A stretch of DNA of 58,148 nucleotides, filler included, from Jimgerdemannia flammicorona (Eukaryota), in NCBI GenBank assembly GCA_003990765.1. It is 2 parts of 2 records of this genome, joined end to end, with 100 filler letters (N's around TTAATTAATTAA, not from the genome) between each part and the next. Parts side by side here need not be neighbours in the genome. Positions count along the whole stretch, not along the records: positions 29,126 to 58,148 come from RBNJ01000527.1; 1 more part is not named here. One strand, 5' to 3'. The number at the start of each line of letters is the position of its first letter. Position 1 is the first letter of the stretch. Position numbers and translations under genes: made by a program. The notes under the pieces were generated by a model. It was not told the DNA's origin. It saw nothing but the letters and a program-made list of their open reading frames with translations, and did no database searches. Positions 421-49,936 of the stretch are shown piece after piece.

Positions 421-427
421 CAACTAT

Positions 428-2060
428 AGAATACCCTGAACATACTTAGTGAGGCCAATCAAATTGGACAAATCTCAAGCTACTACCAGATTGGCCACCT
501 CCTAGAAGATATGGTTGAATACTATCATGATATAAACATTATCCAGATGTCTCAACATCAGAAACTCATTGCTTGCAAATATTGAGAACTCTTCTATGAG
601 TATAGCACCTTTATTTCCCATCTCTGAGTTACTACTACTGAAATGGTCACTACCCTGTCCTATGGCCAAATCGATGATATGATATAAGAAATTAATCACA
701 AGTATATCAAGTATGTTCAGACTACAGACAGAACCTTTCTACACCCTGATGACTATATCCTGCAAATGTCCCAAATAGGATATGCCATAAAGGATATCTA
801 TAATATAATCTAATTCAACAATGATGAAGCAGAAGACAATAATCCCTCTAATACTAATATGACCTCAAGTCAAAGATATCTGCCAACTCTGATCACTCTG
901 CCAATCTTGCTAATGAACTTACAACAGTTCATAACTACCTATGAAACTTATTGAGACAATGACCACTGGTATAAATACTAACTTGCATTCACTCTCAATT
1001 ACTTCAACTATAATAAAGAGACTAGAGAAAACAATCTGTACCTTCAGACAACTCTCAAGATCAAACCAACCACTCCACCACCCAAGTATAAGCAATATGA
1101 ATTACAGCTGCCAGCTTACTACAACCCCATAACTCATAGTGCTATAACCTATAGAAGGTATGTAGATAGCAAATCTGATGAAAGCAAAAATGATATACCA
1201 CTCCTTCGCCTATCAACTCCATACCTAGCATATGAGACAGACAATGCTATCCTGTGGAATAGTGATGAGTTCCAATGTTTTACTACCTCAGTGAATAGGG
1301 AGAATTAGTCTGCGAACAACTTTTCCTAGACAACTACTTCATCAGAGATAATATCATCAATGGTGATGTCATTGAAGACTACCCAGACAGCATCTAAAGC
1401 TATAAATAGCTTAGCAGTCATAGTATAGTTAGATTAGCCTTATACAATGTGACTGTGAACTGACTTAGCAGTTAGATGATCTCTTGATATATCAGATCAC
1501 ACTTGTACTATATGACTGCATTCTGACTCAGCAAGACACTAAGTACTACATCCATATTCAGTATAGCCTAGATAGCTCCTCACTAGTATAAATACCCCCT
1601 TCTCCAGACCTCAGAATCTCAGACTTAAAAAGACTTAAACATACAAAGAACACTCCTGAATACTTTCCCACAATATCCCTTTACACAACTACTCCTAGTA
1701 TAGCAATATCATGAATAGTGAATAAACCTATTTAATAACCTATAAACCACTCTTAAGTAAATCTGCTCCATTATGAAATTTCCTAATTGAGTATTGTCTG
1801 CAGTGATATACCAATTCAACTAAGCTGACCTTAGTTTCTTGAGCTTTCTGAAATATGGAAAATCCTGAACATCCTGAACTAGTCCAAAAAAGGACTTTGG
1901 TTGAGACATCAATCTGATCTTGAAATCAATAAGTGTAGAGGACATACTCTATATAAAATTGATCTTGACCTTAAGAAGATGGTCTTCCAGAATATCCAGA
2001 ACTTCCAGAAAACCCTTTCAGAACTACATAACAGTTACCCTAACAAGTAACCCTCTTACA
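428..2060 (+). repeat. E1 5' LTR (first ~415 bp not in the window)
   Basis: Aligns with ~8985-10652 and ~30076-31723. Ends ...ctcttaca at 2060. TATAAATA at 1587-1594 and AATAAA at 1721-1726. Confidence 0.9.
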
Positions 2061-2063
2061 ACT

Positions 2064-2075
2064 TGGTAGCAGTGG
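2064..2075 (+). promoter_or_regulatory. E1 primer-binding site (tRNA-iMet-like)
   Basis: TGGTAGCAGTGG lies 3 nt after the LTR end; TGGTAGC is the usual initiator-Met PBS start. Confidence 0.75.
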
Positions 2076-3021
2076 TTTACAATCCAATTCCACTTCAAGA
2101 TACTTTCTCACCCCACAACAAATCCCTCTGAGAATTCCTATAAGTTGGTATAAAGCCCAACCTCTGAACTGGAATTTATTCTAAACCATCTGACAATCTG
2201 GAGAGAATTGAATCTGACATACAAGGACAATTTGACCTCTACACCTACAACAAGTGGGACAAACTTCATTCAAAGAAAGAAATACTCCAGTTAAATCAGC
2301 AGATAGGCAAAACTCTATATACCAAACTCCTTACACTACACCCAGCAAGTCAAGATGAAGAAGGTCTTATAGAAGCCTTCTTTACTCTTCTCAATAAGAG
2401 TTTTATCAGCTTTACAAATCTGAGCAACCTAGAACAACCATCAGCAGTCTTTCTAGCCTTAGTTCCTTACAAAGCCCAAGCCTCTATAGCCAAGTGACTC
2501 AACTCTACAGACTTTCACTACACCAGGACCAAGACTGCATTATACTACTGATTTCAGAACAGCAAGATCCACCATATTCTTAAGGAAGAAGAAAGAGAAA
2601 CCCTTTATCAACAACCTGATCCCAATCCTAAAGTAGGCCCTGCTATAGCTCTATCTGAACCTGAAACCAATATCAAACCAGAATCTAACTTTGAATTAAG
2701 TTCTTCTGAAATTAGATATACAACTGATTCTGTTTACTTTGATGCTGAGCAAACCCAACTATATAGAGACCAAACTGAAGAGGAGGAGGAGTTTCTCAGT
2801 GAATTCGATCCTAGATACACTACTGAAGGAGATGCACCTCCATCAGGACAGAATACATCTACACAGCAACAGACAGCTATCTATTGAGCCCTTACTCCAG
2901 ACCTACAACTATTACTCCAGCAACTTATACAAATCCAAAGAACCCCATCACACTTTGCACCAGTACCTCAAGTAGTACCAGAAATACTACTACCAGTAGT
3001 CTAACTGCCTTAGTAAATAAT

Positions 3022-6000
3022 ATGGCAAACCAACAGATTCTAGACCTCACAGCCCAGATAGCAATAATGGCAGCAACCATTACTGCCCTAGCTGAACAGA
3101 CCTGACCTACTAAAAATCTGAGCCTACCTACCTTCAATGGTACTGCACAAGAAGTCCAAAGCTTCATTAGTGTAGTTGATATCAACTTTGAAGCCAACCA
3201 ATGGACAAATGAGTGAGTTGCTAACTGCCTCCTAATAAACAATCAAGACCACACTCTGGAACAACTCTTTGCTACTACCACAGCCTATGTCTGATGAGTT
3301 GTTACATTCTTCCAAGGACCTACTGAAGAATGGTGGTAAACCCTTCCTGAAAAACCCCTCACATGGGATACCCAACATACAGTAGTTGCCCAGAATACAG
3401 CAAACAATATCCGCCCATCCTACAGCTACTGGACTGAAACAACTCATGATTGCTCAATACTATAGCAAAACCATAATTGCTGAATCTCAAGTAAAACTCC
3501 ACAACCTCAAATTTGATATATATGGCAAGAAAGAATTCGAAATCTTCTATACAAAACTCAAGTCACTTCTGAATACCATTGGCCTAGGATATATTGCCAA
3601 TGATGAAGCATGAAATGGTATAAGAGCAGACCATCTATTCAATACAAAATCCAAATAGCTTACTAGAAAAATCAGAGAACAAGGCCACCCAGTTGATTGT
3701 GATCACCAACAATGGTACCTAGCAAGAATCAAGACCATGGTCAAGCAAATCCTAACAGCTGGACCAATTCTGCCCTGAAGACAATTTAATAACAAGGAAA
3801 AGACTTGGACCAAGAAAGAAGAACCTAAGCATGAAGCATCCCAAGCTCCCTTCACATCCACCTCTTAGATACTCAGAAATCATGAACCCACCCAGCTGAG
3901 TATCTTCAAGAAACTCACTGAAGGAGAAAGGAATGAACTTCGAAGAAGCAGAGCATACTTCTATTGCCAAAAGACAGGACATATGGCCAGTGCCTACCCT
4001 AACTGAAAACCCCAAACAGCAACATGAGCAACTGTTACTACTCTACACCACCTCAATAATCTGACTACCAGAATACTGGACTTTGTCAAGTTAAGGCAAA
4101 CTGCCAAGACCCCAACCAAAGGAAGTCAAAAGGCAGCTAGATATAATCTGTATGCAGCTGAAGAAGCTATAGTTTCCAACCAAGAAATCAAGTAAGTCTA
4201 CACAGGAATCAGTATCCAAATCTCTGAAGGATATGTTAGAAGAATATACTATTGCAGCAGCCTAGCATTGAAAGAACTCTCAGTAGAAGGAAGAGTTATT
4301 GATGAAGATTATACAGGTGAAATTGTTGTCCTCATCTGAAACCATAGTTGGACACTCTTCAAGACTCCATTGGTCTCTGCATTGCTCAGATCTTATTCAA
4401 AAAAATCAAGTCAACCCTGACAGTCAAGGAAGTCTCTGAACTACTGCCCACCATCCAAGGATCTAAAGGATTTAGCTCATCAAACAAGGCTCCAGCCCAA
4501 TCTACCATAAACAAAGAAGAATAATTCTACAAGAAAATCAAAGATAGATATATACTAAGTGGCCAATGTCTCCATGGCATTGGAATGTACTCTTTCTGAA
4601 TGATTGATGATTACTTCTCTTATATCAATGAACTGGCTCAAAGAAGAACCAACAGAAGAAAAGCTTCTATAACCGAAATCACCATCATTAGATCAGACAA
4701 ACTGCTTATACTTCAAGCTTTTGTCAATCAAGCATCTGTCAAGATTATGATAGACAGTGGTGCCTCAGGCAACTTTATCAATGAAGAAACAGCCAACAGA
4801 CTCAAGGTCCTGACATCTCTGATATAACAAACTCAAGTAGTTGTTACAGCTGATAGAACCTCTCATGTCATTAGTAAGGAAGTCTACAACCTGCCCTTCT
4901 GAATTAGTGACTACCAAGTACATGTTACCCTTCAGATCATATCACTTCCTGACAACAAGATCATTCTTGGAACTCCATAGTTAAAACAAAAGAACCCTAT
5001 GATCAATTGGGTAAACTATTCTCTAACCATCAAGAAAGGATGCCACAACTTCAAACTATAAGGTGAAAGGGACCCACTCAGCTCTAGTGACCCTAGATCA
5101 AAGATCACTCATATCAATAAGCTACAGCTCAAAAAATTGGCCAAGAAATACCCTCTCTTTGCCATCTCCATCTGTCCATCCAAAGGAGAACCTGAGAACT
5201 CTGAGAAAGACTTTTTCAAAGTTGACAGCTGTGTCAGACCATTATTCTAGAAATTCTGAGACATATTCCCAAAGAAGCTTCCAAAAGGCCTACCTCCTAA
5301 ACGAGTAGTAGACTATGCCATCAAGACTATTCTAGATACTAAGCCAGCCTTCAAGTCAATCTACCACATGTTTCTGAGAGAAATCAATATACTCAAGAAA
5401 GAAATTGACAAACTCCTAGAACAAGGATTCATCAGATCCAGTATATCACCCTATGGTACACCAGTCCTCTTCATTGTAAAGAAAGGAGAAGACCTATAAA
5501 TATGTATTGATTACCATGACCTCAATGAACAGATCATCAAGAACTATTGCCCACTGTCCAGAATCAATGAAATATTCAATAGACTTACCAACCCACAATT
5601 TATGAGCTCTTTTGATCTCCAAAATGGCTAGTGGCAAATTGCTATGAAAGAAGAAGACATCTACAAGACAGCTTTCCAAACCCACTATGGACACTTCAAG
5701 TTTCTGGTTATGCCTTTTAATTTAACTAATGCTCCTGCAACCTTCCAGATACTGATGAATATCATCCTGTACCTATACCTAGACAAATTTATTGTTGTCT
5801 ATATTGATGACATCCTAGTCTTCAGCAAAACCCTGGAGGAACATCTTGAACACCTTGAACTAGTACTACTGAAACTTCAAGAAAACACAAAACTCAGCAA
5901 GTGTGAATTTCTCTTGAAAGAAATTCAATTCCTTGGATATATTGTCACACCAAATAGAATCAAAGTGAACTCTAGCAAAATCTCTACAATCAAGGATTGG

Positions 6001-8120
6001 CCTAGACCAAAGAAGCTGAAAGACCTCCAGTCATTCCTGGGATTAGCAAACTATTATAGATGATTTGTTGCCAACTTTGCCAAAATCACTCTGTCCTTAC
6101 CCAAATGACTAAGCACAGCAAGAAAGAAGAACAGCCCTGGACCATGAAACAAGAAAAAGACTTCAACAATCTTATAAATTGGGGATCTGAGCAAGATACC
6201 ACCTTTCAAGTACTAAAGAATGCCTTAATAACCACTCTAGTACTTCAAGCAGCAAATTCTGCCCTACCATATGAAGTTACTACTGATACCTCTGACCTAG
6301 CCCTTAGAGCAGTACTTATGCAAGAAGGACACCCTGTGGCCTATCACTCTCATAAGTTCAATAATGCTGAAATCAACTATGTAACTTACAAGAAGAAAAT
6401 GTTAGTTATTGTAAACACTCTGATCAAATAGTGACTATACCTAAAAGGAGCATACTTCACTGTATTGACTAACTACAAGTCATTAGTCAACATCAAGACC
6501 CAGGCTATCCTTTCCTAAAAGTAAGCCAGATGGATGAAAGTTCTCACCAACTTTGACTATGAAATCCAGTATCACCCTGGCAAGGAAAATATTATTGCTA
6601 ATATAATCTCCAGACCACCAATCAAAGAGGTTATCCAAAAATCTCACCTTAGTTACCAATACTATTATGGAACAAATTATTGCAGTATGTGCCAATGATA
6701 AGAAAGCTCAAGTACTCAGAGAAATTCTAAACAGTAATGATACTGACAAGTATACCCAGTATAACTAATACCAACTGAAGGACAATGCTATCTACTATAA
6801 GGACAGATTGTATATTCCAAATAAGCAAGATCTCTGAAGGACTATCCTATTCAAATGTTATGATACCCCTACCACTAGACATTTAGGATTTAACAAATAC
6901 TATAAAGTTATCTCCCAAAACTTCTATTGGCCCTGCATAACAGATCAGCTAAAGACCTACATCACTTTCTGTGATGCCTGCCAATGGAACAAGTCCTCAA
7001 CACTAGCAAAACCTAGCTTACTACACCCCATCCCAGTACCATCCACTAATTGGGAACAAATCTCTATAGACTTCATTATACAACTACCCCAGACCAAGAA
7101 CAAGAAAGATACAATTATTGTCTTTATAGACTATCTCAGCAAACAAGCCTACTTTGTGTCAACTACTACTACTGCAACAGTACCAGACATAGCCACACTC
7201 TTGTTTGACAATATTTTCTGCTATCATGGTCTTCCTAAGATCATTATTAGTAACTAAGATCTGAAATTCACTAGCTATTTTTGGAAAGCCCTCCATGCAT
7301 ACCTTGGAACAAAACTTGCACTATCTACAGCCTTTCACTCTGAAACTGATGGCCAAACTGAAAGAATGAACCAAACTCTGGAACAAATGCTAAGGAACTA
7401 TATTTCCTATAGACAAGATTATTGATATGAATATCTCACCACAGTTAAGTTTGCCTACAATAACAGCAAGCAAGCCTATCTTGGAATAACCCCATTCTTC
7501 ATCAATACTGGACAAAACTCAAATACCCCTCTGATACTTATCCAAACCACTGATGAACCCTCCACAGTTGAAGCTATTGAAGAATTCCTGCTCTGAATGT
7601 GCAATCTAAGCCAGATCACAATTGAGAATTTATTGCAAGCTTAAGAACAACAGTTACAGTATGTTAACCAATACTACCAAGAAGAAACCTTTGATATCGG
7701 AGAAAAAGTTCTACTAGATATTTGAGGATACCAAGTTGATAACCTCAAGCACAGACCTTCTACAAAGCTGAACAGCAAGTTTATCAGACTATTTGAAGTC
7801 ATTGTACAAGTCTCTCCTACTTTCTACAAATTGTGCTACCAGATACTATTAGGATTCACCCTGTTTTTAATATTCAATGTCTCAAGCAATATAATGAAAA
7901 TGACAATAAGCTATTCTCAAACCAGACCACTGAACTACCTGCATATGTCATTATTAATGACCAAGAAGAATACAAAGTTGAATAAATCCTTAACAAATGT
8001 GGCCACAAGAACTATCCAGAGTATCTTGTCAAATAGAAAGGTTATCTGATCCATGATACAACATAGGAACCCAAGACCAATCTCCAGAATGTCACTGACT
8101 TGGTCTAGGAATATAATTCC
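3022..8120 (+). pseudogene. gag-pol: E1 gag-pol (gag, dUTPase, Cys/His module, PR, RT, RH, IN, chromodomain) with many nonsense and frameshift lesions
   Basis: Zn knuckle YFYCQKTGHMASAYP at ~3955-4000; PR ~4700-5060; RT ORF 5644-6063; RH TDTSDLALRAVL ~6280; IN ~6850-7880; chromodomain EEYKVE*IL...EYLVK*KGY...T*EPKTNL ~7960-8120. Confidence 0.92.
4080..4490 (+). pseudogene. dut: dUTPase domain of E1, between gag and protease
   Basis: Decayed motifs: AARYNLYAAE (motif 1 AGYDL), TGISIQI, SSLAL (2), VIDEDYTGEI (3), IAQI (4), QGSKGFSSS (5). Confidence 0.88.
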
Positions 8121-8548
8121 TTAGACAACTGAAACCGAATACTCTGCACCTATCAGTACATACTATATATTACCCTCCTGAATATTATAATTATTATGAA
8201 CCAAATCAAGAACTCAGCAAGACAAAATAAAAGAATACCAACCCTCTAGAAAAAAAGCAAAACTGAAAGCAAGCCTATTCTCCTCATACCACTGATGGGA
8301 AACAAGATATAGATATTTAAGAAGATTCCTTAGAGGAAATTCTCTAGTAGTAAATGATGTGAGAATCACTTCCAGCATACAGCATTGAATACATGACCCT
8401 TTAACATATGAATCTAATGCATTAGGCAACTGTACTATGAGTATGCCACTTTTTGAAAAAAAATGGACTTTACCAGACTTTTGACCTCCCAAATGGTGTA
8501 ACAATACTGGAACAAATTAAGAAGGCCCCAATGAGGATGTCAAAAGCT

Positions 8549-8561
8549 AAGAAGGGGAGAG
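8549..8561 (+). promoter_or_regulatory. E1 polypurine tract
   Basis: AAGAAGGGGAGAG just before the 3' LTR start (tataagcacac, versus tgtaagcacac in the solo LTR). Confidence 0.85.
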
Positions 8562-8562
8562 T

Positions 8563-10652
8563 TATAAGCACACAACCTCTAAGCCACTGAAATGAGATGT
8601 CACTCTCTGAACAAGCCACCAAAATTACATACAACAACTGAACAAATCTGGAAATCACCTACTCAATCATGAAGCTAAGTCAAACCAAAGTTATAGTGTA
8701 CAAAGTTGAGTCAACATAAAGTCATAAAACACAAGATTTATACAAACAGAATCTTACCAATCAGGACCAAATATATATATACCAAGCATCAAGATGCATC
8801 AAAACAGAGAACCAAAACAAATCAAACAAACAACTACAACTTCTGAATATATACAAATATGACCACCAAGATCTATAACTATATCTGTACTGATATTTGG
8901 AATGCCATTGTCAACTGAGCCACATCCCCTCTGCCCCTTATGAATATCCATAGCCTAGCACTCCTCTACTTTGTGGAAGCTTGATGGAATGCCCTGAACA
9001 TACTTAGTAAGACCCACTAAATCAGACAAATCTCAAGCTACTACCAGATCAGCTACCTTCTAGAAGACATGGTTGAACACTACTATGATATGGACATTAC
9101 CCAGATGTCTCAATATCAGAAACTCATTGCCGGTAAACATTGAGAACTCTTCTATGAGTACAGCACCTTTATTCCCTGTCTCTGAGTTACTACTGCCAAA
9201 ATGATCACTACTCTGTCCTATGGCCAAATTGACAACATGATACAAGAAATCAACCACAAGTATATCAAGTATGTTCAGACTATAGACAGAACCTTCCCAC
9301 ACTCTGATGACCATATCCTGCTAATGCCCCAAATAAGATATACTATGAAGAATGTCTACAATATAATCTGATTTGATGATGATGAAGCAGAAGATAATGA
9401 TCCCTCTGATGCTGACATGACCTTAAGCCAAGGATCCCTGTCAACTCTGATTACTCTGCCAATCTTGTCAATAAACTTACAATAGTTCATAACTATCTAC
9501 AAAACTTATTGGGACAATGACCACTGATATGAATACCAACCCGCATTTTACCCCCGATTACTTCAACTATAATGAAGAGACTGGAGAACACAATCTGTAC
9601 CTTCAGACAACTCTTGAGATTGAACTGACCACTCCACCATCTGAGTATGAGTAACATGAATTATAGCCACTAGCTTACTACAACCCCATGACTCATAGTG
9701 CCATAACCTATAGAAGGTATGCAGATAGTGAATCTGATAAAAGTGAAAACAATACACTACTCCTTTGCCCACCAACTCTATATCTAGCATATAAGACAGA
9801 TGATGCTATCTTGTGAGATAGTGATGAAGTTCCAATATATTACTATCTTAGTAAACAGAGAGAATTAATCCATGAACAACTCTTCCTAGATAACTACTTC
9901 ATCAAAGATGATATCATCAATAGTGATGTCATCAAAGACTACCCAGACAGCATCTAAAGCTATAGATAGCTTAGCAGTCATAGTATAGTTAGATTAGTCT
10001 TATATGATGTGACTGTGAACTGACTCAGCAGTTAGATGATCTCTTGATATATCAGATCACACTTGTATATACTACATGACTGTATTCCAACTCAGTAAGA
10101 CACTAAGTGCTACATCCATATTTAGTATAGCCTAGATAGTCCCTCACTAGTATAAATATTCCCTCCCCCAGACCTCAAAATCTCAGACTTAAAAAGACTT
10201 GAATATACAAAGAACACTTCTGAACACTTTCTTATAATATCCCTTTATACAACTACTCCTAGTATAGCAATATCATGAATAGTGAATAAATCTATTTAAT
10301 AACCCACAAACCACTCTTAAGTAAATCTGCTCCCCATTAGATCCCACTCCTAACCCTATCACGAAATTTCCTAATTGGGTATTGTCTGCAGTGATACACC
10401 AATTCAACTAAGCTGGCCTTAGTTTCTTAAGCTTTCTGAAATATGGAAAATCCTGAACATCCAGAACTAGTCTGAAAAAGGACTTTGGTTGAGATGTCTA
10501 CCCAATCTTAAAATCAATAAGTGTAGAGGATGTACTCTATATGAAATTGATCTTGACCTTAAGAAAATAGTCTTCCAGAATATCTAGAACTTCCAGAAAA
10601 CCCTTCCAGAACTACATATATAACAGTTACTCTAACAAGTAACCCTCTTATA
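8563..10652 (+). repeat. E1 3' LTR (~2090 bp) containing a decayed ORFX copy (~8859-9988)
   Basis: Full-length match to the solo LTR at 29662-31723; termini TG..CA mutated to TA..TA. Confidence 0.93.
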
Positions 10653-18000: not shown

Positions 18001-18637
18001 CTCTACAGAACCTCCCTCTAGATTGCAACTCTCTGCTCACACCAAGGTCTCAGTAGGACTGACCCATATACTGACAGATAAATATCCAAGTACTACACTG
18101 CCTCTCCAGCAGAGACAATTGTTCCAATGATATCTCCTCCCACTAAGCCATTGTCTATCACCATCATTTCACACTTGTACCAATTGAGTTTAGCCCCAGA
18201 GTGCACCTCATACCACTTCACTATCTCCTTAAGCTCCTTGATATCAGTAATTGATCCTAGGTCGACCACTATGTTATCTGCAAAGGCTCCAACTTTCCAC
18301 CCAATTCCAAAAACTGAGAGCCCAACTATCTTCTGCCTAATCCTATCCATCAAAGACTCTAGGGAAAGAGTATACAGAATAGATGACAGGGGGTCCCCCT
18401 GGGGCATACCCCTATCCAGGGAGAACACTACCCCTCTATATCTATTGTATATAAGTACAGCCCTACTCCCTTTCAGTAGGCTGACTATTGCTGACTGAAA
18501 CTGATGAGTTACACCAATTCTATCTAATACCTTCACCAACCAGACCTGCCAAACCCAGTTATATACTTTCTTCTGATCCAGAAAGACCAGTCATCTATCT
18601 AGTTTACAGACTCATACCCCTTCAATAACTCTATATA

Positions 18638-24263: not shown

Positions 24264-24726
24264 TATAATGGTTCTAGTTCTTTAAGAGAAAGTGGCTAAA
24301 TCTGGAAGTTCTAGTAGGCCTAAAGTAGCTCAAAGAGATACTTAAAGGTTTAAGTATTCTTGAAGGATTTCTGGGAGAAAATATTCTGAGCTTTATTCAA
24401 GCAGAGAATAAGGATATTTATATATGATCTGAAAGAAAGATCTGGAAGAATTTTGGAAAAAAAGAGAAATATCAAGAAATAGGTTCTTGGCAAAGCTGAC
24501 TAATACTATTCTACAATGTTCTGAAAGGTTCCATGACTAGCTAAGATAAGATACTTAGTATCAAGGAAAGATAAGAATGTTCTAGTAGTGTCTGGATACT
24601 GAGAGAAGATTTCTAAGCAAGTAGAAGGTAGTGGAACATAGTAGAATGTTTAAGAAATGACAAGAAAAGACTAACTAAAAGATGTGAAAATGTACTAAGA
24701 CTAAATATGACTGTGAAATTATTACA
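24264..24726 (-). repeat. E3 5' LTR
   Basis: Direct repeat of 18638-19100; followed on the minus strand by the PBS. Confidence 0.93.
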
Positions 24727-27700
24727 ATGTACCCAAGCCATGCTATCTCTAATGAGCTAGTCTCCTACAAAGCCCCACTGCTCTACACCCAAGACTTGCT
24801 GGGCCACCTTCTGCAGCCTTGTAACTATCACCTTAGTAACCAACTTTCTGTCCATGTCTAGCAACATCATTGGCCACCAGTTCTTCCAATTCTCTCTCCT
24901 TCTCTTGTCTTTATAAAGCAGTATCACTAGCCCCAGATCCTGCTCCCCCACTCATCTCCCTAACTATAGTATCCAATCACACATTACTATCAGCTCTCTC
25001 AGTACTCCAGGGACTCCTACCATCTGCTTCCAGAAGTCTCAGGGCAGACCATCCTCCTCTGGTGCTGTGCCCAGTATAGTTACAGCAAGAACCTGGTGGA
25101 TCTCCTCCTCCTATACTGGTATTACCAAGTTCCCCAGCCTTTCTGCTTGTGGTGAGTGCCAATCCTCCAGAGCACAGTCAATGGTAGCAGCATCAGCCCC
25201 ATCCTCCTCTTCACTCCATAAACCACTCCATCTCTCCTTTGATGATCCAAGAATATCTTGTATACTATATACCAGCAGACTATCAGAATCTAGTACACCC
25301 TCCTATCTCTGCTTTACTCTCCTCACCTGAAGGGTCCTTGTGAGATACTTTGAAGGCCTTTCTCTTTCCTCCAGCCCCTGCCAATATAGCCATGCTGTCA
25401 AACTCTGCACCTGTGCCTCCTCCACTTTTCACAACACCTGTTATAGTTTCCCAATCTCTATTTTCACCCACATTAATCTCCAGTCCTCTCCCCCCTCCAG
25501 TGCCACCAGACCTGCCCAATCTTCCAGGAGTCTAGTCAGTCTAGCAGAAACCCATCTCACCCTTTTCCTCCTGTCTTCTGGCCACCTTGCCAGCCTCACT
25601 CCAGTAGGTCCTAGCAGCCTCTTTCATCCTCATTCACTGGGCACCAACTGGGGCACCCTCCTGCATCCAGTCCTCTACCTTCTGCTGAATGTTCTCAGCC
25701 CACTTGTCCCACAGTACCTTATCATCTAACAAAGAGAAATTGAGATGCCAATGTCCAGGCCCATCTCCACTCTCCCCAAAATGACCCTGCCCTAGCAGCC
25801 CCCAATGATCTGACCACAGACACCACTCTGCCTTCAGTGACTTCCACACATCCAAACCCCAGTAGCTTACTGTCAGAATCTAGTCAATTCTTATCTCCAG
25901 GCCAGCTGTCCAATGTGTGTATATCCTCCTATCACCCCAGAACCCCCTATCAGTATCCACTAGAGCACTTAGTCTTTCCACTTCCTCCTATACCTCCAGC
26001 CCTCCTCTCCTACCCTCAACCCCCTGCCCTTCATCAGTTCTATCCACTAGACCATATTGAAGTCTCCACCAAGTATATCCACTCCAGCCTCTGCAAGGGC
26101 CCCACTCTCCTGGAGGCCTCTCACCCAATCTACATACTTACTCCATACAGCAGGGCAGTAGCAGGAACCCACTGTAACTGGCTCCCACCCTGTTCATATC
26201 TACTCTCCCCAAACCAGCCTGTCTCTCCAGCTCCTCACATTACATATCTCCCCCCTGCCTCTCCAAACCAGAATTCCAATCTTGCTCTTCCAAACTACCT
26301 CACCTCCCCATTTCTTTGTCCATTCCAGTCTATTTAAATCATCCTCACATCTGACATCCTACAAAAGGAAGATATCAGCCTCCAATCTCTTTAGCTAAAT
26401 AAAAATATTTCAATGTTGAAAAGAACCCCATAACCCATTTATGTTCAAAGAAAAAGTATTGATTATACTGTTCATAAGGAAAATTATGTGATATCAAGTA
26501 TATCCTCTACTGCTCTATATTCATTGCCTTCTGTGCTATGTCCAGATTATATTCAGCAGACACCTCCTCCTCTTCAGCCCTCTTAGCCTCCAATCCAACC
26601 AGTAGTTCAGTCATCTCTCCATCCTCCTTTTCCTTAAAATCTTCATAATACTCCAGGCAGACCTCTTGCCAGAGCTATAATTCATGATGTTTAGCCCAAC
26701 AGTAGGTGGCCTGCTCACCAGTAATAACTGCCAGCTCAGCCTCCCTCTCCTTATCTACCTTATACCCTTCTTCTTCTAAGTATACTACAAGTATTTCTGC
26801 CTTCAATGTCACCACCACTCCATTGTCCCACAGGATCTATGTCCAATGCTCATCACTCATCACTCTAAGGTCTACTTCCCCCAACTCTTCAGCCACTAAG
26901 TTATTCATTATCTGATATATCCAAAGTAGGTTCTCCACCTTCTTCCTCTCTGGAGTCGCTGGCCTTCCTCTATCCAGTATTGTGGTATCAGCCTCTACAC
27001 TCACAGACTCATCCCACTCCTCCTCTGAGATATCCACCAATTCCTCTTCACCAGCTGCTATCACCAGTCCCCCCTTCACCACATCAAGAACTCTGAAATG
27101 TACTTACTGAGCCCCATACATTAATACATCCCTGCCACCCAGTCTCTTGCAGCTGGTCTCTACCTAATAAGAGGAGAAGATATATTCTCTCAAATCTCAA
27201 ATATACCATCCTTATACAGGTTCTTGCTTGGCATCTTCCTGGCCTTCTTCAGACCCACCTCTTTATTCCCTCCACTTCCTCTAGCCCAGATACTCACCTT
27301 GGTACCTCCAGTATCTCCACTACTACCAGTGTTCCTCTTTGCCCCTTTCTCATTTTTTGCCATCAACTCTCTCTGCCTCCTGCATTCTTGGGACCTCTCC
27401 CACATCTCCTTTTTTAACATGGACCTGCTTCTCATCAATAATCTCCAGGTGTGTTGACTCCACAAATATCTTTCAAGCCTTTGCCCTCTACTCTACCATA
27501 TCACTCAACTCCTCCAGTACCTCTAACAAGTCCTCTTTCTCCTCCTCACTCTCCTTCACCCTCATCACCTTATATATGATGGCTCTCTACATCATCACTG
27601 AAGATCAGTCCTGAGTCTTCTCAGTAGTCTCCCTTTCTACCAACCAAATCTGGATATCAACATCCCCTATCTAAAAGGAGGTTCCTTCCCACACTCTGAA

Positions 27701-29025: not shown

Positions 29026-29125
29026 NNNNNNNNNNNNNNNNNNNNNNNNNNNNNNNNNNNNNNNNNNNNTTAATTAATTAANNNNNNNNNNNNNNNNNNN
29101 NNNNNNNNNNNNNNNNNNNNNNNNN
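29026..29125. other. Assembly gap with artificial linker (44 N + TTAATTAATTAA + 44 N)
   Basis: Exactly 100 bp and symmetric, with a six-frame stop spacer at 29070-29081. Confidence 0.95.
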
Positions 29126-29661
29126 TTTTTTTTTTTTTTTTTTTTTTTATAGTCCCTTGGACTCCATCTTTATTACCAGTCTATGAATAAGTATACAATA
29201 TCACTACCCACTATCTGATCCCCATCGGGGGGCCCCTCCCCACCTCTTCATATATAAAGACCACTCTCTCACCAACAACTCCAACTCTCCCACCACTCTG
29301 ACCACAGATTTTCACCACCAAGTAGTGCCTCCGACCCCCCTGCAGCCCCCAACCAAGCCACCAGCCCATCAAGGTATCCTCCATAAGGTACTACCACCAT
29401 GATAACTGGCTCCCCAAGCTCTGTCGCCTCTCCTCCTCAAATACAAATAGCCAGTGACCAGCCAGCCTAACCCAAATAGCCAATGCCCAGCCTAATCCAC
29501 TCTTCCCCTACCCCTCCTATCAATCAATCCCTCAGGTCCTCCCACCTCTCCCGTACATCATCATCCCTACGCCTTACTCCCAAGTGGTCCCCAATGGCCT
29601 GCCAAAAGTCTCCCAACACCTCACACTCCCCTAGCCAATGTTCCGGCATCTGTACAAATTC

Positions 29662-31723
29662 TGTAAGCACACAACCTCCAAGCCACTGGAATTATATGTC
29701 ACCCTCTGAACAAGCCACTGAAATCACACATGACCCTGAATAAATCTGGAAGTCACCTGCTTGATCACGAAGCTGAGTCAAACTGAAGTCACAATGCACA
29801 AAGCTGAGTCAATACAAAGTCACAGAACACAAGATTTATACAAATGGAATCTTACCAATCAGGACTAAATGCATATATACTGAGCACCGAGATGTGTCGA
29901 ATCAGAGAACCAAAACAAACAACAACCACAACTTCCAAACACACAAACATGACCACTGAGATCTACAACCATATCCATGCTAACATTTGGAATGCCATTG
30001 TCAACCGAGCTACACCCCCTCTACCCCTCATGAATATCCATAGCCTAGCACCCCTCTACTTCGTGGAAGCCCAATGGAATGCCCTGAACATGCTTAGTGA
30101 GGCCCACCGAATCGGACAAATCTCAAGCTACTACCAGATCGGCCACCTCCCGGAAGACATGGTCGAACACCACTACAATACAGACATTACCCAGATGTCT
30201 CAACACCAGAAGCTCATCGCCCACAAACATCGAGAACTCTTCTACGAGTACAGTACCATCATCCCCTGCCTCCGAGTTACTACCAGCAAAATGGTTGCTA
30301 CCCTGTCCTATGGCCAAATCGATGACATGATACAAGAACTCAACCAGAAGTACCTCGAGTATGTCGAAATCACAGACAGAACCTTCTCACATCCCAATGA
30401 TCACATCCTGCAAATGCCCCAAGTTGGATACACCATAAAAGATATCTACAATATAATCCACTTTGATGAAGATGAAGCAGAAGACAATGATCTCTCCAAT
30501 GCCAACATGACCTCTAGCCAAGGATCTCTGCCAACCCTGATCACTCCGCCAACCTTACTGATAAACTTACAACAGTTCATAACTGTATACGAGACTTATT
30601 GGGACAATGACCACTGGTACAAATACTAACCTGCATTCATCCTTGATTACTTCAACTACAATGAAGAGACCGGAGAACACAACCTGTACCTTCAGATGAC
30701 CCTTGAGATTGAACCAACCACTCCACCACCTGAGTACGAGTGACATGAACCACAGCTACCAGTATACTATAACCCCACAACTCACAGTGCCATAACCTAT
30801 AGAAGGTACACAGATAGTGAATCCAATGAAAGTGAAGACAATACACCCATCCTTTGCCCACCAACACCTTATCCAGCATATGAGCCAGATGATGCTATCC
30901 TGTGAAATGGAGATGAAGTTCCAATGTACTATTACCTTAGCGAACAAGGAGAAGTAATCCGCGAACCATTATTCCTAGATGACTACTTCATCAGAGATGA
31001 TGCAATCGATGGTGATATCATCAAAGACTATCTAGCAGTGCCTAAACCCATAAATAGCCTAGCAGTTATAGTATAGTTAGATTAGCCTTGTATGACATGA
31101 CTGTGAACTGACTCAGTAGTCAGATGATCTCTTGACATGTCAGATCACACTTGTACTACGTGACTGCATTCTGACTCAACAAGGTACTTAGTGCTATATC
31201 CATATCTAGCATAGTCCAGATAGCCCCTCACTAGTATAAATACCCCCTCCCCCAGACCTCAGAATCTCAGACTTGAACACACACAAGAACATTCCTGAAT
31301 ACTTCCCCACAATATCTCTTCACACAAATACTCCTAGTATAGTAATATCATGAATAGCAAATAAACCTATTCCATAACCCACAAACTACTCTTAAGTAAA
31401 TCCGCTCCCTGTTAGGTCCCACTCCTAACCCCATCACGAAATTTCCTAATTGGGTATTGTCTGCAGTGATATACCAATTCAACTAAGCTGGTCTTAGTTT
31501 CTTGAACTTCCTGAAATATGGAAAATCCTGAATATCTAGAACTAGTCTGAAAAAGGACTTTGGTTGAGACGTCAACCCAATCTTGAAATCAATAAGCGTA
31601 GAGGACATACTCCATATGAAATTGATCTTGACTATAAGAAAACAGTCTTCTAGAACATCTAGAATATCCAGAAAACCTTTCCAGAACTACGTAATGGTTA
31701 CCCTAAAAAGTAGCCCTCTTACA
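29662..31723 (+). mobile_element. Solo LTR (2062 bp) of the E1 family
   Basis: TGTAAG...CTTACA termini; 5-bp TSD aattc/aatcc; the flanks rejoin to continuous LINE sequence; no PBS or internal region. TATAAATA at 31235-31242 and AATAAA at 31360-31365. Confidence 0.95.
29844..30629 (+). CDS. ORFX inside the solo LTR, 261 aa of unknown function; the ancestral frame probably ran to 31076 (up to ~410 aa) with an acidic, Tyr-rich tail
   Basis: Open frame. The TAA at 30627 is CAA in the E1 3' LTR, and two later TGA codons correspond to CAA/TAA (implying CGA) and TGG in the other copies. Similar to post-integrase ORFs of E4 and E5. Confidence 0.75.
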   Translation: MESYQSGLNAYILSTEMCRIREPKQTTTTTSKHTNMTTEIYNHIHANIWNAIVNRATPPLPLMNIHSLAPLYFVEAQWNALNMLSEAHRIGQISSYYQIGHLPEDMVEHHYNTDITQMSQHQKLIAHKHRELFYEYSTIIPCLRVTTSKMVATLSYGQIDDMIQELNQKYLEYVEITDRTFSHPNDHILQMPQVGYTIKDIYNIIHFDEDEAEDNDLSNANMTSSQGSLPTLITPPTLLINLQQFITVYETYWDNDHWYKY

Positions 31724-34454
31724 AATCCCCCTTCTTGTCCTACATTATAGCACTCTTTGCAGTCAAAGCAGCCCCCCTACAACAAGGTGTCCTGAGCAGA
31801 AGTTAAGCATCACATTCCTCCTCAGCACATGCCACCAGACCACCCAGTACTTCGGCAGCATCCAATTTTCACTGTAGCACTCCAGGTCCAAACCTCATAT
31901 CAGTCCTACTCTTCACCAATTCCAACTCCTTGCCAACTACTAGGCTACAGATCCTGGCCTGGTCCCTTTTGGCATTCAATGCCATTACTAATGTTGAACT
32001 CCAGTAAAGGCATGCCTCTCAGAAGAATACCATTTCATCTCCACATTGCTGGGCCCCAAGCCCTCTCCCCCTCATCCCCTCACCAGCGAATACCAATGTG
32101 GTGTACCCCCTCAGCTATCCCCTACCAGAAGCCTTTATATCTCAGTTGCACAGTATTCTGAAGCCCAACTAATGAAAGAAGATCACCAGTCAAGCCTCTT
32201 GGTGATGTCTGCCACTCCCATATCTTCTGCAGCAGGGGAACCCAGCCCCCTCCACGCAACTCCACCACCCTCCTCAGCCCCCATGCCCTCAAGCAGTGTA
32301 GTCTTTTGGGGAAGTCCACCAGCCCAAGACCACCTCTCGCCACTGGTAGGGACAAAGTCTCCCAACCAATCTGACTCCATTGCCAACCCAAATCCATCCC
32401 TTGGCCACCTTCACCAATCTCTTCACTACCCAGGCTAGGAAGTCCAGATGATAAGCCAAATACCACAGCTTCAGCAGCCAGTATATATTCGAAATTGAGA
32501 TTCTTCCTGCCAGAGAGAAGTGTCTACCCCCCCAATCCCGCAGGTCCTCCTCCCAAATTCCAATTCTCTGCTCCCACCACAGCCTGGGCAAAACAGACCC
32601 ATAGACTGACAAATAGATGCCCAAGTACCGCACTGCCTCTCTGGTGGGGACAATTGTTCCAATAACTTCGCTGCCCACCAGGCCATTGCCCAGTACTATT
32701 GTTTCACACTTGTGCCAATTCAGCTTCACCCCAGAGTTCTCCTCATACCACTCTACTGTCTTCTGGAGCTCCTCGACATCTGCAGTCACTCCCAAACCAA
32801 CCACCATATCGTCTGCAAAGGCTCCAACCTTCCAGCCAACTCCATAGATAGAGAGTTCCACAATCCTCCACTGAATTCTGTCCATTAGAGGTTCCAAGGA
32901 AAGAGCATACAAAATGGGGGACAGTGGGTCCCCCTGGGGCACTCCCCTACCCAGAGGGAATGCTACCCCTCGATGTCCATTACATATGAGCACAGCCCTA
33001 CTCCTTTCCAGTAGGCTGACCATCGCCGACCGAAATGGGACCAGAACCCCAATTCTATCTAATACTTTCATCAGCCATACTCACCACACCCAATCGTAAG
33101 CCTTCTCCTGGTCCAAGAAGACAAGATGCCCATCTAGTCCACAGGCTCGAGCACCTTCAATAATTCCATGTACCCAGGCCATACCATCTCTAATAAGCTG
33201 ACCCCCTATGAAGCCCCTCTGCTCAACACCCACAATTTGCTGGGCTACCTTCTGTAGCCTTGCGACCACCACCTTAGTCACCAACTTTCTGTCCATATCT
33301 AGCAACATTATCGGCTGCCAGTTCTTCCAATCCTCTCACCTTCTCTTGTTCTTATAAAGCAGCATCACCAGCCCAAGATCCTACTCCCCCACCCATCTCC
33401 CTGACTGCAATATAGAGTCACACAGTGCTGTCAACTCCCCCAACATACCCAGGACTCCCACCATTCGCTTCCAGAAGTCCCAGGGGAGGCCATCCTCTCC
33501 AGGCGCCATACCCGAGGCTGTTGCAGCAAGAACCTGGTGGATCTTGTCCTCCTTTACAGGTGTCACCAGGTCACCTAGTCCCTCAGCTTATAGTGGGTGC
33601 CAATCTTCTAATATTTGGTCAATGGCTGTAGCATCTGCCCCACCCTCTTCCTCACTCCACAACCCACTCTATCATGCCTTCAGTGTTCCAAGAATGTCCT
33701 GTACACCATGCACTAGTACACTATCCAAGTCGAGTACCCCTTCCCACCACTGCTATACCCTTCTCGCTCGAAGTGTCCTTGTGAGAAACTTGGAAGGCCT
33801 CTCCCCTTCCTCCAGCCCCTGCCAATGAAGCCGTACCACCAGGCCTTACACCCTAAACTCTTCCTCTTCCCGCAGCACCTATTGTAGTTCCCCAATCTCC
33901 ATCTTCACCCTTGTTATTCTCCAATCCTCTTCTCTCTCTACTACTGCCAATCTCACCCACTCCTCCAGGAGCCTAGCTAATCTAGTAGAAGCCCAATGCA
34001 CTTTCTGCCTTTACTGCTTCTCAGCCACTCTGCTAGCCTCACTCCAATACATCCTGGCCATCTCTTTCATCCTCATCCACCGAACCCCAATCGTGGCCCC
34101 TTCCTGCTACCAATTCCCCACCTCCAGCTGAATGTCTTTCACCCACTCCTCCCACCAGGACTCATCATCCAGCAAGGAGGAATTTAGGCACCAATGTCTA
34201 GGCCCATCACCACTTCCCCCAAAACACCCCTGTCCCAAGAGGCCCCAGTGATCTGACCATGGACACCATTCTACCTCTAGCACCTTCCAAATATTGCAGC
34301 CCCAACAGTCAACCATCAGAATCCAGTCAATCCTTGTCCCCAGACCTCCAGCCCAATGCGTATATACTCTCCTGTCCCCCCAGTACCCCCTACCAGCATC
34401 CACCAGTGCTCCTAGCCTTTCAACCTCCTCCCTGTGGGAGAGTTTCAGTACACC

Positions 34455-35730: not shown

Positions 35731-35909
35731 TGAGCTTCCAAAACTCAATATTCTGTCGTGATCTGGATGGTGATTTAGTGATTTAGTCGCTAACGGTCCC
35801 TCAGTTCACTTTTCAGAATCAGCGCCGAGTCCAACGACAGGGGGCTCAGGAATCTCCACAAATTCAGGGAGCTTGATAGATTCCATGGTAGGGGGGATCT
35901 GAACCAGAG

Positions 35910-37163
35910 ATGATTTCAATACTATATTCCACTGCTCATGTGAGTCCTGAAGAACACCCCCCACCGAAAAAGAAAACTCTCCCAATTGAGCTGATATGTG
36001 AGATTATCAACCTCATTAACAAGGATATAGATATGAATCCCCTCGACGTGATCGCCAGTGCACTTGTCTCAAAGATATGGTACTCACATGGAGCTAGTTT
36101 GACAATCGCACACAGACATGTCTGTTCCAAACTCGAAATTTTCCCTCCAATTGGCAGTGTTGATATTACACGGCTTCTAAATCTCTTTATTGAATCCAAA
36201 CACGTCCGTGCAGACTTTCACAAGGACATAAGGATTGTTTCCGTCAATTTCACTAAATACGACGATAGCCCCGACAACGAAACACAGTTCAAAGAGCTGA
36301 AAGAATCTCTGCTGACAGTATTTAAATTGGAACCCCCTAATCTTAAAAAGCTTGAATTTTGTTGTCGGGGGAGCGACACACCCAAATTCCTGAGTGTCGA
36401 ATTTCCAATATTAATTAGGCAGATCAAATCCATGCCTCAAATTCACCAGATATTATTTCTCATGCTCAAAAATCCCAAAACATCTGATTTCAAAATACTT
36501 GTAGATGTGCTCTCATTTCAACTGAAAAGTTTGACATTGCATCAGTTTTGTTTGAGGGAGGAGGTTTGCGAAAGTCTTCAAAAATGCACAAAGTTAGAAT
36601 ATATCTCTTTCATTGACATGGCCATCCCATTTGTAAATTCGGTATTAAAATTTTGGCCGGATTTCCGTTACTTCTGCTATATGAACCAAACAAGCGATGA
36701 CACTGGCCTAGCCGCTGCTTTGTGGGTCTTACCTATCAAATGTATTGAGGTCAACCACATTGCAGTTCACTCAAAATCTATCAGCTTGAAGACAATTCTG
36801 TTTCTGTTGTCCTCTTATCCATTGATGACTACGTTGGAACTATCGAACAATCTAATTAACAATACCATTATAAAGACCATATTGCTCTGCAACCGAGGTC
36901 TCAAGGAGATTATATTCCAATACAACGCAATCACAGGTGACATTACGGTTGATGATGTACATGATGGTTGGCCTCAGCTTCGGGAACTATACCTGACTTA
37001 TTCCCCAGATCTTATTCCAAATTTCTTTGAGCTAGTAATCCCGAAATATGTAAGCCTTAATTACGTTACTGTCCTGGAACATTTAATTAGCAACCATTTT
37101 GTTGTGGCAATAATGTTGCAATATGGATTTGTTAAACAATTCCATCATTCCTGGACCCGATAG
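35910..37163 (+). CDS. F-box-like plus RNI-type leucine-rich repeat protein (417 aa, intronless)
   Basis: LPIELICEIINLI...ASALVSKIWY is F-box-like; repeated LxxLxL motifs (NLKKLEF, QLKSLTL, KCTKLEYISF, WPQLRELYL). Confidence 0.8.
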   Translation: MISILYSTAHVSPEEHPPPKKKTLPIELICEIINLINKDIDMNPLDVIASALVSKIWYSHGASLTIAHRHVCSKLEIFPPIGSVDITRLLNLFIESKHVRADFHKDIRIVSVNFTKYDDSPDNETQFKELKESLLTVFKLEPPNLKKLEFCCRGSDTPKFLSVEFPILIRQIKSMPQIHQILFLMLKNPKTSDFKILVDVLSFQLKSLTLHQFCLREEVCESLQKCTKLEYISFIDMAIPFVNSVLKFWPDFRYFCYMNQTSDDTGLAAALWVLPIKCIEVNHIAVHSKSISLKTILFLLSSYPLMTTLELSNNLINNTIIKTILLCNRGLKEIIFQYNAITGDITVDDVHDGWPQLRELYLTYSPDLIPNFFELVIPKYVSLNYVTVLEHLISNHFVVAIMLQYGFVKQFHHSWTR

Positions 37164-43235: not shown

Positions 43236-43713
43236 TGTAATGTAGCGGATGCTTACTCTTGAAAGTACGTCAGATTTCTGTATCTTGAAAACTTGACTGT
43301 TCTGACTCTCGCAGAGTCTCTTGAAGTGGCAGGGGAGGGTGGGTGAGTTCGCAGTGTATCTGCCTGCAGGCTTATTAGTTCCTTTACTATCTCTTTTGCT
43401 TTTGAACTATTTCGATCTGAGGTTTATTCACTCAAAGATACTGGGTTATTTATACAAGTTTGCTAGCTATGAGAGGGTGGCTAAGTAATAAATGAGTCAT
43501 TTGGACTTTGTCGAAACATTTGGACAATGTCTAAACACTATACTAAATCGGGGTATCTGATTTGGATAATGTCTAAAATTTAGACAATGTCTAAGAAATT
43601 AGACAATGTCGAAATCGAGAACTGCTAACTATAATGCTATACTACTTTGGGAATGGGTGTGATCAAGTGTCTATTCCCTATTTCCTTCTTCCAAATCTGG
43701 CTGTACCATCACA
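43236..43713 (-). repeat. E4 3' LTR
   Basis: TGTAA...TCACA; TATAAATA on the minus strand at 43447-43454; direct repeat of 49461-49936. Confidence 0.95.
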
Positions 43714-49460: not shown

Positions 49461-49936
49461 TGTAACGTAGTGGATGCTTACTCTTGAAAGTACATCGGAT
49501 TTCTGTATCTTGAAAACTTGACCATTCTGACTCTCGCAGAGTCTCTTGAAGTTGTAGGAGAGGGTGGGTGAGTTCGAAGTGTATCTGCCTGCAGGCTTAC
49601 TAGTTACTTTGCTATCTCTTTGCTTTGAACTATTTCGATCTAAGGTTTATTCACTCAAAGATACTGGGTTATTTATACAAGTTTGCTAGCTATGAGAGGG
49701 TGGCTAAGTAATAAATGAGTTATTTGGACTTTGTCGAAACATTTGGACAATATCTAAATGCTATACTAAATTGAGGTATTCAATTTGGATAATGTCTAAA
49801 ATTTAGATAATGTCTAAGGATTTAGATAATGTCAAAATCGAGGACTGCTATCTATAAGGCTATACTACTTTGGGACTGGGTGCGATCAAGTATCTATTCC
49901 CTATTTCCTTCTTCCAAATTTGGCTGTACCATCATA
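49461..49936 (-). repeat. E4 5' LTR
   Basis: Direct repeat of 43236-43713, adjacent to the PBS. Confidence 0.95.

Follow-up and report, generated by a model that had tools for sequence, protein, structure and literature searches.

Introduction

Genes encoded in the U3 (unique 3′) part of long terminal repeats (LTRs) exist in retroviruses, as exemplified by sag of mouse mammary tumor virus (MMTV) and by nef of HIV, which overlaps U3; we know of no typical fungal Gypsy example. Here we describe an open reading frame (ORF), designated ORFX, that lies inside the LTR of E1, a decayed Ty3/Gypsy chromovirus of Jimgerdemannia flammicorona (assembly GCA_003990765.1). The whole stretch of DNA analysed, hereafter the window, spans 58,148 nucleotides and joins parts of two records by 100 filler letters, with positions 29,126 to 58,148 deriving from RBNJ01000527.1. 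Comparison of the LTR copies in this window provides good support for ORFX having been a coding frame under purifying selection, and we consider it probable that ORFX served as an accessory gene of the E1 family, most likely from a position in U3.

Like ORFX, MMTV sag is an ORF contained wholly in the LTR, located upstream of the LTR promoter and duplicated with the LTR. MMTV, however, is a vertebrate betaretrovirus, whereas ORFX resides in a fungal-type chromovirus, and Pfam searches disclosed no sequence relation between the two. Sag is a type II membrane glycoprotein, in contrast to the ORFX product, which has no hydrophobic segment. More generally, neither Pfam nor PDB profile searches yielded homology of ORFX to Sag, Nef or other retroviral accessory proteins. 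Lentiviral nef and spumavirus tas/bet are accessory genes located downstream of pol/env that extend into U3. They overlap it only in part, and their spliced or internal-promoter RNAs have been mapped experimentally, whereas ORFX shares no homology with them and is known here from sequence alone. Foamy viruses use an internal promoter for these genes, which resembles the one proposed below for ORFX.

Outside the retroviruses, the additional ORFs (aORFs) of plant elements (PMC7264820, in part) are, like ORFX, extra family-conserved ORFs that accompany gag-pol, have no known function and are often orphans. The available sections of that article locate them either ahead of gag or in the interval from pol to the 3′ LTR, and none in the LTR; ORFX does not share this location in the internal region, outside the LTR. 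The backbone of E1, that is, Ty3/Gypsy with a chromodomain and a dUTPase, is also that of PosPlaTy3 of Postia and of Phanerochaete and Tuber elements (PMC2864245, in part), and the Figure 3 legend of the same source lists, for some such elements, an 'add. ORF' whose function is unknown. The accessible text of PMC2864245, to which this comparison refers and from which the figure may differ, places no added ORF in an LTR. Similarly, the available passages of a paper on the bdelloid ORF3 (PMC5408684) contain nothing on ORFs reaching into LTRs. The LTR of Cassandra terminal-repeat retrotransposons in miniature, as described in the accessible portion of bioRxiv 10.1101/2023.07.14.548913, carries a 5S rDNA-like module that has its own promoter and is duplicated with the LTR, but this module is a fragment of an RNA polymerase III gene in a plant non-autonomous element, whereas ORFX is protein-coding. 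Within the literature searched, MMTV was the only case of an LTR-embedded ORF, and a case elsewhere is possible. The arrangement of ORFX would thus correspond to the retroviral U3-gene layout, present here in a chromovirus of fungal type; the orphan protein that it encodes is unrelated and falls into no known accessory-gene family.

Results

A reading frame shared by all three E1 LTRs

The E1-family LTR is a 2,062-bp repeat whose termini, TGTAAG…CTTACA, are perfect 6-bp inverted repeats. Three copies were located in the window (one solo, one 3′ and one 5′), bearing out a previous reading of the DNA made by inspection only (hereafter the sequence-only reading), which had counted a ~2.06-kb LTR three times. 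The same reading had placed ORFX in each copy, upstream of a TATA box at 31235, and the frame was indeed recovered in all three.

29662..31723, + strand: solo LTR of the E1 family, 2,062 bp, TGTAAG…CTTACA
8563..10652, + strand: 3′ LTR of the full-length element, 82.9% identity to the solo LTR over 2089 aligned bases
426..2060, + strand: 5′ LTR from LTR position ~412 on, 81.1% identity to the solo LTR over 1661 bases
29949..31045, + strand: ORFX of the solo LTR, ancestrally 365 codons, now a pseudogene
8859-9957, + strand: ORFX of the 3′ LTR, with 11 in-frame stops and a 1-nt insertion at 9546
427-1397, + strand: ORFX of the 5′ LTR, 323 codons, with 8 in-frame stops and a 1-nt deletion near 1267

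The ORF of the solo LTR measures 261 codons from ATG to stop (29844-30629), precisely the open length reported before, and 273 codons from stop to stop. When the LTR was shuffled 1000 times with dinucleotides preserved, no frame attained the latter length (mean 96.5, maximum 193). The same frame can be followed to about 31045, interrupted by only three stops, at 30627, 30741 and 30903, and by a private 1-nt deletion near 31035. The stretch that remains open runs from 29949 to 30626, or from 29844 if the upstream ATG is included. Over 29949-31046 there are 3 stops in 366 codons, as against 10, 17, 23, 25 and 33 in the other five frames. The three ORFX copies align in frame, the 5′ LTR copy being present in the window without its first ~43 codons, and they read at the three solo stops as had been anticipated: the codon at 30627 is TAA in the solo and 5′ LTRs and CAA in the 3′ LTR; that at 30741 is TGA in the solo LTR, CAA in the 5′ LTR and TAA in the 3′ LTR; and that at 30903 is TGA in the solo and 3′ LTRs and TGG in the 5′ LTR.

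These figures bear on the trivial explanation that the frame, never translated, owes its openness to chance or to a biased composition. With a GC skew of -0.29 to -0.46, the + strand is rich in C and poor in G, which leaves fewer TGA and TAG triplets, and the predicted protein has neither a known domain nor a confident fold; yet the shuffles never reach 273 codons, the other + frames hold 17 and 33 stops, and both the codon-position test and the two open-frame homologues (62% and 88% identity) presented below argue for translation. We therefore regard a chance frame as extremely unlikely, and indeed as close to refuted.

With regard to the boundaries of the gene, conservation of the frame does not extend upstream of ATG 29949, the solo and 3′ LTRs differing there by a 6-nt and a 2-nt indel, and one of the homologous proteins (P0002) begins at this very ATG; 29949, not 29844, is therefore the likely start. 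At the opposite end, both other LTR copies finish with …DYPDSI-TAA, equivalent to positions 31043-31045 of the solo LTR, and the second homologue (P0001) ends alike. Sequencing data point the same way: 20 sequencing runs are listed for the window (best share 0.23; none on record as RNA), and in one of them, X2, the base deleted in the solo copy near 31035 is present in four contigs (depth 22.5/26.5). Hence, TAA 31043-31045 is the ancestral stop and the ancestral ORFX comprises 365 codons (29949-31045), which corrects the previous estimate of up to ~410 aa ending at 31076. ORFX is wholly inside all three LTRs, the solo one included, and those copies were the only tblastn matches in the window for ORFX, P0001 and P0002. 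This outcome also rules out a gag-derived origin of ORFX, which had been entertained as a candidate.

Codon-level traces of purifying selection

Because the two LTRs of an element are identical at insertion, copy-specific differences of the paired 5′ and 3′ LTRs provide a measure of neutral decay. The codon-position test was a three-way comparison over 30075-31034, in which the solo LTR versus the 5′/3′ LTR pair defines a deep branch; this branch includes the solo copy's own decay, which dilutes the signal. Changes on the deep branch fell at the third codon position in 59 of 106 instances, with a synonymous to nonsynonymous ratio of 54:46. By comparison, 54 of the 148 copy-specific post-insertion changes of the paired LTRs were at the third position, and the ratio of synonymous to nonsynonymous or stop changes was 48:96 (Fisher p=0.003 for position and p=0.0015 for synonymous versus nonsynonymous). 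The third-position bias that the sequence-only reading had proposed as a check was thereby detected within the window (p=0.003).

The synonymous excess on the deep branch was maintained upon removal of sites touching CpG (p=0.004). When ORFX was divided, the deep and post-insertion ratios were 12:8 and 10:21 in the first half (p=0.08), and 42:38 and 38:75 in the second (p=0.012). In the two wrong frames the signal was absent or reversed, and downstream of ORFX the deep-branch changes were spread evenly over pseudo-positions (18, 17 and 19). No indel inside ORFX was common across the deep branch, each of the three copies (3/3) having one private 1-nt indel. Together, these comparisons lend good support to a coding frame that was under purifying selection while the family diverged. 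Since the excess falls on the branch between two LTR insertions, selection acted while ORFX sat in the LTR.

The location of this excess is also relevant to a passenger origin, according to which ORFX, as a gene of the host or a fragment of some different mobile element, would have been captured in the LTR and be of no service to E1, the constraint signal either predating capture or reflecting hitch-hiking. Retrotransposons can transduce host sequence (PMC7264820, in part), and a passenger would fit a protein that is linked to none of the gag, pol and env families and resembles nothing else in the element or the window. Against it stand the presence of ORFX in 3/3 LTR copies that are 17-19% diverged, the synonymous and third-position excess on the branch between two LTR insertions, and the failure to find a host homologue at any length class searched. 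According to the accessible part of PMC7264820, transduced genes occur in one or few copies; ORFX, found in 3/3 copies of an LTR family that is abundant in four sequencing runs, and with no host homologue found, does not have this profile. A passenger origin is, in our view, very unlikely.

Two homologous proteins with open frames

P0001, a protein of 247 aa with an open frame, corresponds to the C-terminal two thirds of ORFX, with 62% identity and 79% similarity. Beginning at an internal Met (residue 115), it carries Q, Q and W at the positions of the three solo stops, and ends in …YPDSI. P0002 (128 aa) is 88% identical and begins MTTEIYN, which is ATG 29949 of the solo LTR; most of its differences from the solo copy would fit G-to-A/C-to-T decay of the latter (R->H, Q, C; D->N; E->K; A->V). 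On the neutral branches 8 of 148 changes made stops, and a drifting relative as distant as P0001 would therefore be expected to contain several, whereas P0001 has none.

Metagenome contigs were also searched at the nucleotide level. The ORFX alignment gave 224 pattern matches in these contigs, 0 of them confirmed, and a conserved LTR 18-mer identified 16 loci, 15 of which had no blastn match to the solo LTR at E<=1e-3. The match of the remaining locus, L002, to the solo LTR extended over only 20 bases, at the 18-mer itself, and all 16 loci were dropped.

Position of ORFX relative to the LTR signals

ATG 29949 is 287 nt past the LTR start, where the polypurine tract (PPT) abuts, which sets ORFX 3′ of the PPT, and the end of ORFX is 189 nt upstream of TATAAATA. 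The candidate signals are:

31235..31242, + strand: TATAAATA, candidate core promoter for the genomic RNA, identical in 3/3 copies
31360..31365, + strand: AATAAA, candidate polyadenylation signal, in 3/3 copies, 125 bp from TATAAATA
29872..29880, + strand: TATA-like CATATATAC, putative ORFX promoter, ending 69 nt before ATG 29949

This order matches the general LTR layout of TATA box, R (repeated region) and polyadenylation signal given in the accessible part of PMC3601003. A weak hint of a transcript start near 31300 came from contig depth. In runs X10 and X18, which are RNA by guess, summed contig depth was 1079-5945 over 31314-31487 versus 0-31 over ORFX, whereas the same depth ratio was only about 2-3 in two DNA runs. 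From the motif positions, together with this weak hint, we locate ORFX in U3 as the probable arrangement.

As a separate observation, depths of X10 and X18 reached hundreds to thousands over 31314-31661, and were mostly in the tens over the rest of the LTR and the flanks, with one flank bin at 158. Abundant short LTR-initiated transcripts or small RNAs could account for this profile.

A different partition of the LTR would put ORFX in R, with transcripts extending from ~29900-29945 to past AATAAA 31360 and an R of ~1.5 kb; ORFX would then be a leader ORF ahead of gag, first in the genomic RNA and repeated at its 3′ end. Consistent with this, CATATATAC is positioned 69 nt before the ATG, has a counterpart in the 3′ LTR (ATATATATAC), and is followed up to ATG 29949 by a stretch that is rich in A and C and free of ATG. 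LTRs can possess more than one TATA box as well as alternative transcription start sites (TSSs) (PMC3601003, in part). We nonetheless judge a location in R quite unlikely, because TATAAATA is identical in 3/3 copies and stands 125 bp before AATAAA, the usual layout, and because the depth step at ~31314 in the two runs guessed to be RNA fits, albeit weakly, a start downstream of ORFX. To our knowledge, an R of ~1.5 kb would also exceed by far any described.

ORFX as a putative LTR-borne accessory gene

We thus favor ORFX being an accessory gene of this chromovirus family that is carried inside the LTR, most likely in U3, and hold this to be probable. Reverse transcription would copy U3 to both ends, so that a new insertion would be endowed with two ORFX copies, and each LTR-LTR recombination would leave one of them in a solo LTR. 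The sequence-only reading had put forward the same cycle, which follows from LTR structure; its statement that a complete copy is left behind was overstated, the solo copy having 3 stops and a frameshift. Genomic RNA would start past TATA 31235 and be polyadenylated past AATAAA 31360. For ORFX itself we prefer a promoter of its own in the first ~290 bp of the LTR (29872-29880), combined with use of the LTR's polyadenylation signal, in which case each LTR would be a self-contained expression unit. A spliced subgenomic RNA with a 6-kb intron would be unusual in fungi, and no canonical splice into ORFX appeared among the joints of the sequencing-run contigs. The encoded protein is predicted to combine a helical N-terminal half with a very acidic, Tyr/Pro-rich C-terminal half (pI 4.0).

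Several points weigh against this interpretation. All three ORFX copies are pseudogenes. The selection test is built on three sequences and parsimony, with some parallel hits such as TAA 30627 in the solo and 5′ LTRs. Homologues amount to only two among 5.8 billion proteins (three length classes) plus 1.84 billion (profile), and P0001 and P0002 come from ~1-kb contigs and are known here as proteins only, which makes their presence in an LTR conjectural; judging from the start of P0001, the N-terminal third may not be part of the gene in every lineage. As for the location in U3, a second TATA-like motif lies upstream, at 29872-29880, and a TSS there would put ORFX in R. The RNA label of X10 and X18 is a guess, and contigs cannot show starts or levels. 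According to the available part of PMC3601003, RNA data are required to set the U3/R/U5 borders, and an LTR may have more than one TATA box. Finally, a function for ORFX is unsupported, with no relative in Pfam, PDB or the ESM Atlas and an AlphaFold2 model too poor for use.

An extended version, in which the LTR would be an autonomous cassette and every LTR a dispersed unit for a trans-acting transactivator or anti-silencing factor directed at the family as a whole, appears unlikely to us. Such a cassette would comprise the ORFX promoter in the first ~290 bp, the 365-codon gene, the promoter of the element and a polyadenylation signal common to both. Were it true, ORFX transcription would cross and modulate the element's own promoter, a fungal retrotransposon would possess an accessory gene in the style of complex retroviruses, and solo LTRs would be functional gene copies, not debris.

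LTRs are usually regarded as regulatory DNA that encodes no protein, and solo LTRs either as inert leftovers or as promoters. For the E1 family, the accessory gene proposed here would alter that picture: ORFX dosage would scale with LTR number and outlast loss of the element body, and a fungal retrotransposon would have a 3′ accessory gene as complex retroviruses do. Repeat masking hides LTRs from gene prediction. Should the protein regulate transcription or silencing, it would bear on the shaping of fungal genomes rich in transposable elements.

Predicted properties of the ORFX protein

The ORFX protein is acidic (pI 4.0-4.4; grand average of hydropathy, -0.5), most markedly in its C-terminal 247 residues, where D, P, Y and E abound and the pI is 4.05. 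A simple hydropathy scan gave a maximum Kyte-Doolittle 19-residue mean (KD19) of 0.94, i.e. no hydrophobic segment, and ORFX is therefore not env-like. In Pfam, no family matched ORFX at E<=0.1, the best being RAMP at 0.15, below its cut-off, and a PDB sequence profile search returned nothing below E 0.25. In the ESM Atlas, P0001 had no usable match, its own model having a predicted local distance difference test score (pLDDT) of 0.39, and the only clusters retrieved for P0002, at 0.90-0.93, were unnamed or unrelated and fell short of the recognition threshold. The AlphaFold2 model of ORFX (mean pLDDT 31.7; predicted template modelling score, 0.20) displays helices through the first ~140 residues.

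The tail of the protein, …EPLFLDDYFIRDDAIDGDIIKDY, combines acidic with bulky hydrophobic residues, a composition that we take to resemble acidic activation regions. By this analogy, ORFX might possibly have a regulatory role in the family, as a transactivator or in some other trans-acting capacity, a suggestion that we advance only tentatively. Inspection by eye further disclosed a tyrosine/acidic-rich pattern common to 30648-30698 and 30924-30974 (residues ~234-250 and ~326-342), which read DYFNYNEETGEHNLYL and MYYYLSEQGEVIREPLFL, respectively. Both DYFNYNEETGEHNLYL and MYYYLSEQGEVIREPLFL coincide with beta-strands in the low-confidence model, and they may represent an internal repeat.

Termini and status of the solo LTR

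The solo LTR is bordered by a short target-site duplication (TSD):

29657..29661, strand not applicable: left TSD of the solo LTR, AATTC, matching the right copy at 4/5 positions
31724..31728, strand not applicable: right TSD of the solo LTR, AATCC

The paralogous empty site reads AATCT. The flanks at 29414-29659 and 31721-31998 match 16940-17191 and 17186-17463, which are contiguous and contain no LTR; paralogues of the empty site, within copies of a repeat designated family X, are two, at 17186-17191 and near 312. Likewise, one contig of run X18 links 29654 directly to 31730, with the LTR absent. The TSD and the empty sites establish that the solo LTR is genuine. Its start at 29662 is also the true LTR start, since the loose ends of six X2 contigs upstream of this position read …AAGAAGGGGAGAGT, the same tract as the PPT, and thus carry the PPT of full-length relatives.

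The window lacks the first ~411 bases of the 5′ LTR, and an uninterrupted family X copy runs up to 425; we read this copy as a nested insertion that would have cut off the LTR. Some further joints were noted in the run contigs. A single X2 contig, of depth 2, joins 31353, just before AATAAA, back to the LTR start at 29662, and may reflect a truncated LTR followed by a new LTR in a nested or tandem arrangement in another genome. Joints at 29726-29817 and 30358-30469, where run contigs skip sequence, resemble copy variants. Two runs of 44 N (29026-29069 and 29082-29125) are located about 540-640 bp upstream of the solo LTR.

Sequence context of the decay

Copy-specific C-to-T changes, scored on both strands, had hit 89 of 343 CpA sites (26%), 36 of 195 CpC sites (18.5%), 5 of 10 CpG sites (50%) and 9 of 456 CpT sites (2%). 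Decay restricted to CpG was ruled out, as only 18 of the 148 copy-specific changes touch CpG and the context is CpA plus CpC. The process looks like repeat-induced point mutation (RIP) or another context-dependent deamination. C-to-T decay of this kind has inactivated all three ORFX copies. For CpG, the observed/expected ratio was 0.43 in the solo ORF, compared with 0.08-0.10 for the paired LTRs and 0.04 for the E1 internal region, and the solo copy was the least affected by C-to-T decay. Divergence between the paired LTRs was 15.4% in the ORF part and 8.1-8.7% in the R-U5 part, i.e. ~2x faster in the former.

The host element and neighbouring repeats

The window is a mosaic of decayed retroelements. 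Domains of E1 were identified by Pfam on read-through translations of the three + frames, along with a gag that has a degenerate CCHC-like knuckle, and the element is organized as follows:

2061..8562, + strand: internal region of E1, a Ty3/Gypsy chromovirus, with every frame broken
2064..2075, + strand: TGGTAGCAGTGG, similar to a primer-binding site (PBS), starting 3 nt past the 5′ LTR end, with AC between
~4103-4352, + strand: dUTPase, Pfam E 2.3e-13
~4663-5038, + strand: protease (PR), RVP_2, E 8.7e-06
~5542-5946, + strand: reverse transcriptase (RT), RVT_1, E 3.8e-22
~6180-6554, + strand: RNase H, RT_RNaseH_2, E 1.1e-20
~6826-6996, + strand: zinc domain of the integrase (IN), Integrase_H2C2, E 1.7e-11
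~7971-8117, + strand: chromodomain, Chromo, E 2.3e-05
8550..8561, + strand: PPT, AGAAGGGGAGAG, directly upstream of the 3′ LTR

The pol order is PR-RT-RNase H-IN with a C-terminal chromodomain, as in chromoviruses. With its TG…CA LTRs, TSD, PBS, PPT and pol order, E1 is a Ty3/Gypsy chromovirus LTR retrotransposon.

Rfam gave 0 matches over the whole window. An open frame of 423 codons on the + strand (35892-37163) had no Pfam match. Diverged copies of family X, a LINE-like repeat, occupy 1-425, 16691-18193, 24278-25880, 29169-29661 and 31724-34323; minus-strand RT ORFs of this repeat are located at 32292-33080 and 18096-18590. The solo LTR sits in one family X copy, and a different copy adjoins the truncated 5′ LTR. 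A second Gypsy element occupies the minus strand between ~300-bp repeats at 43392-43691 and 49615-49914, which are 92% identical. The two Gypsy elements differ in the position of the dUTPase, which precedes the protease in E1, whereas the minus-strand element has the protease (47560-48177) first and then the dUTPase (46642-47556). Variable placement of the dUTPase is known in fungal chromoviruses (PMC2864245, in part).

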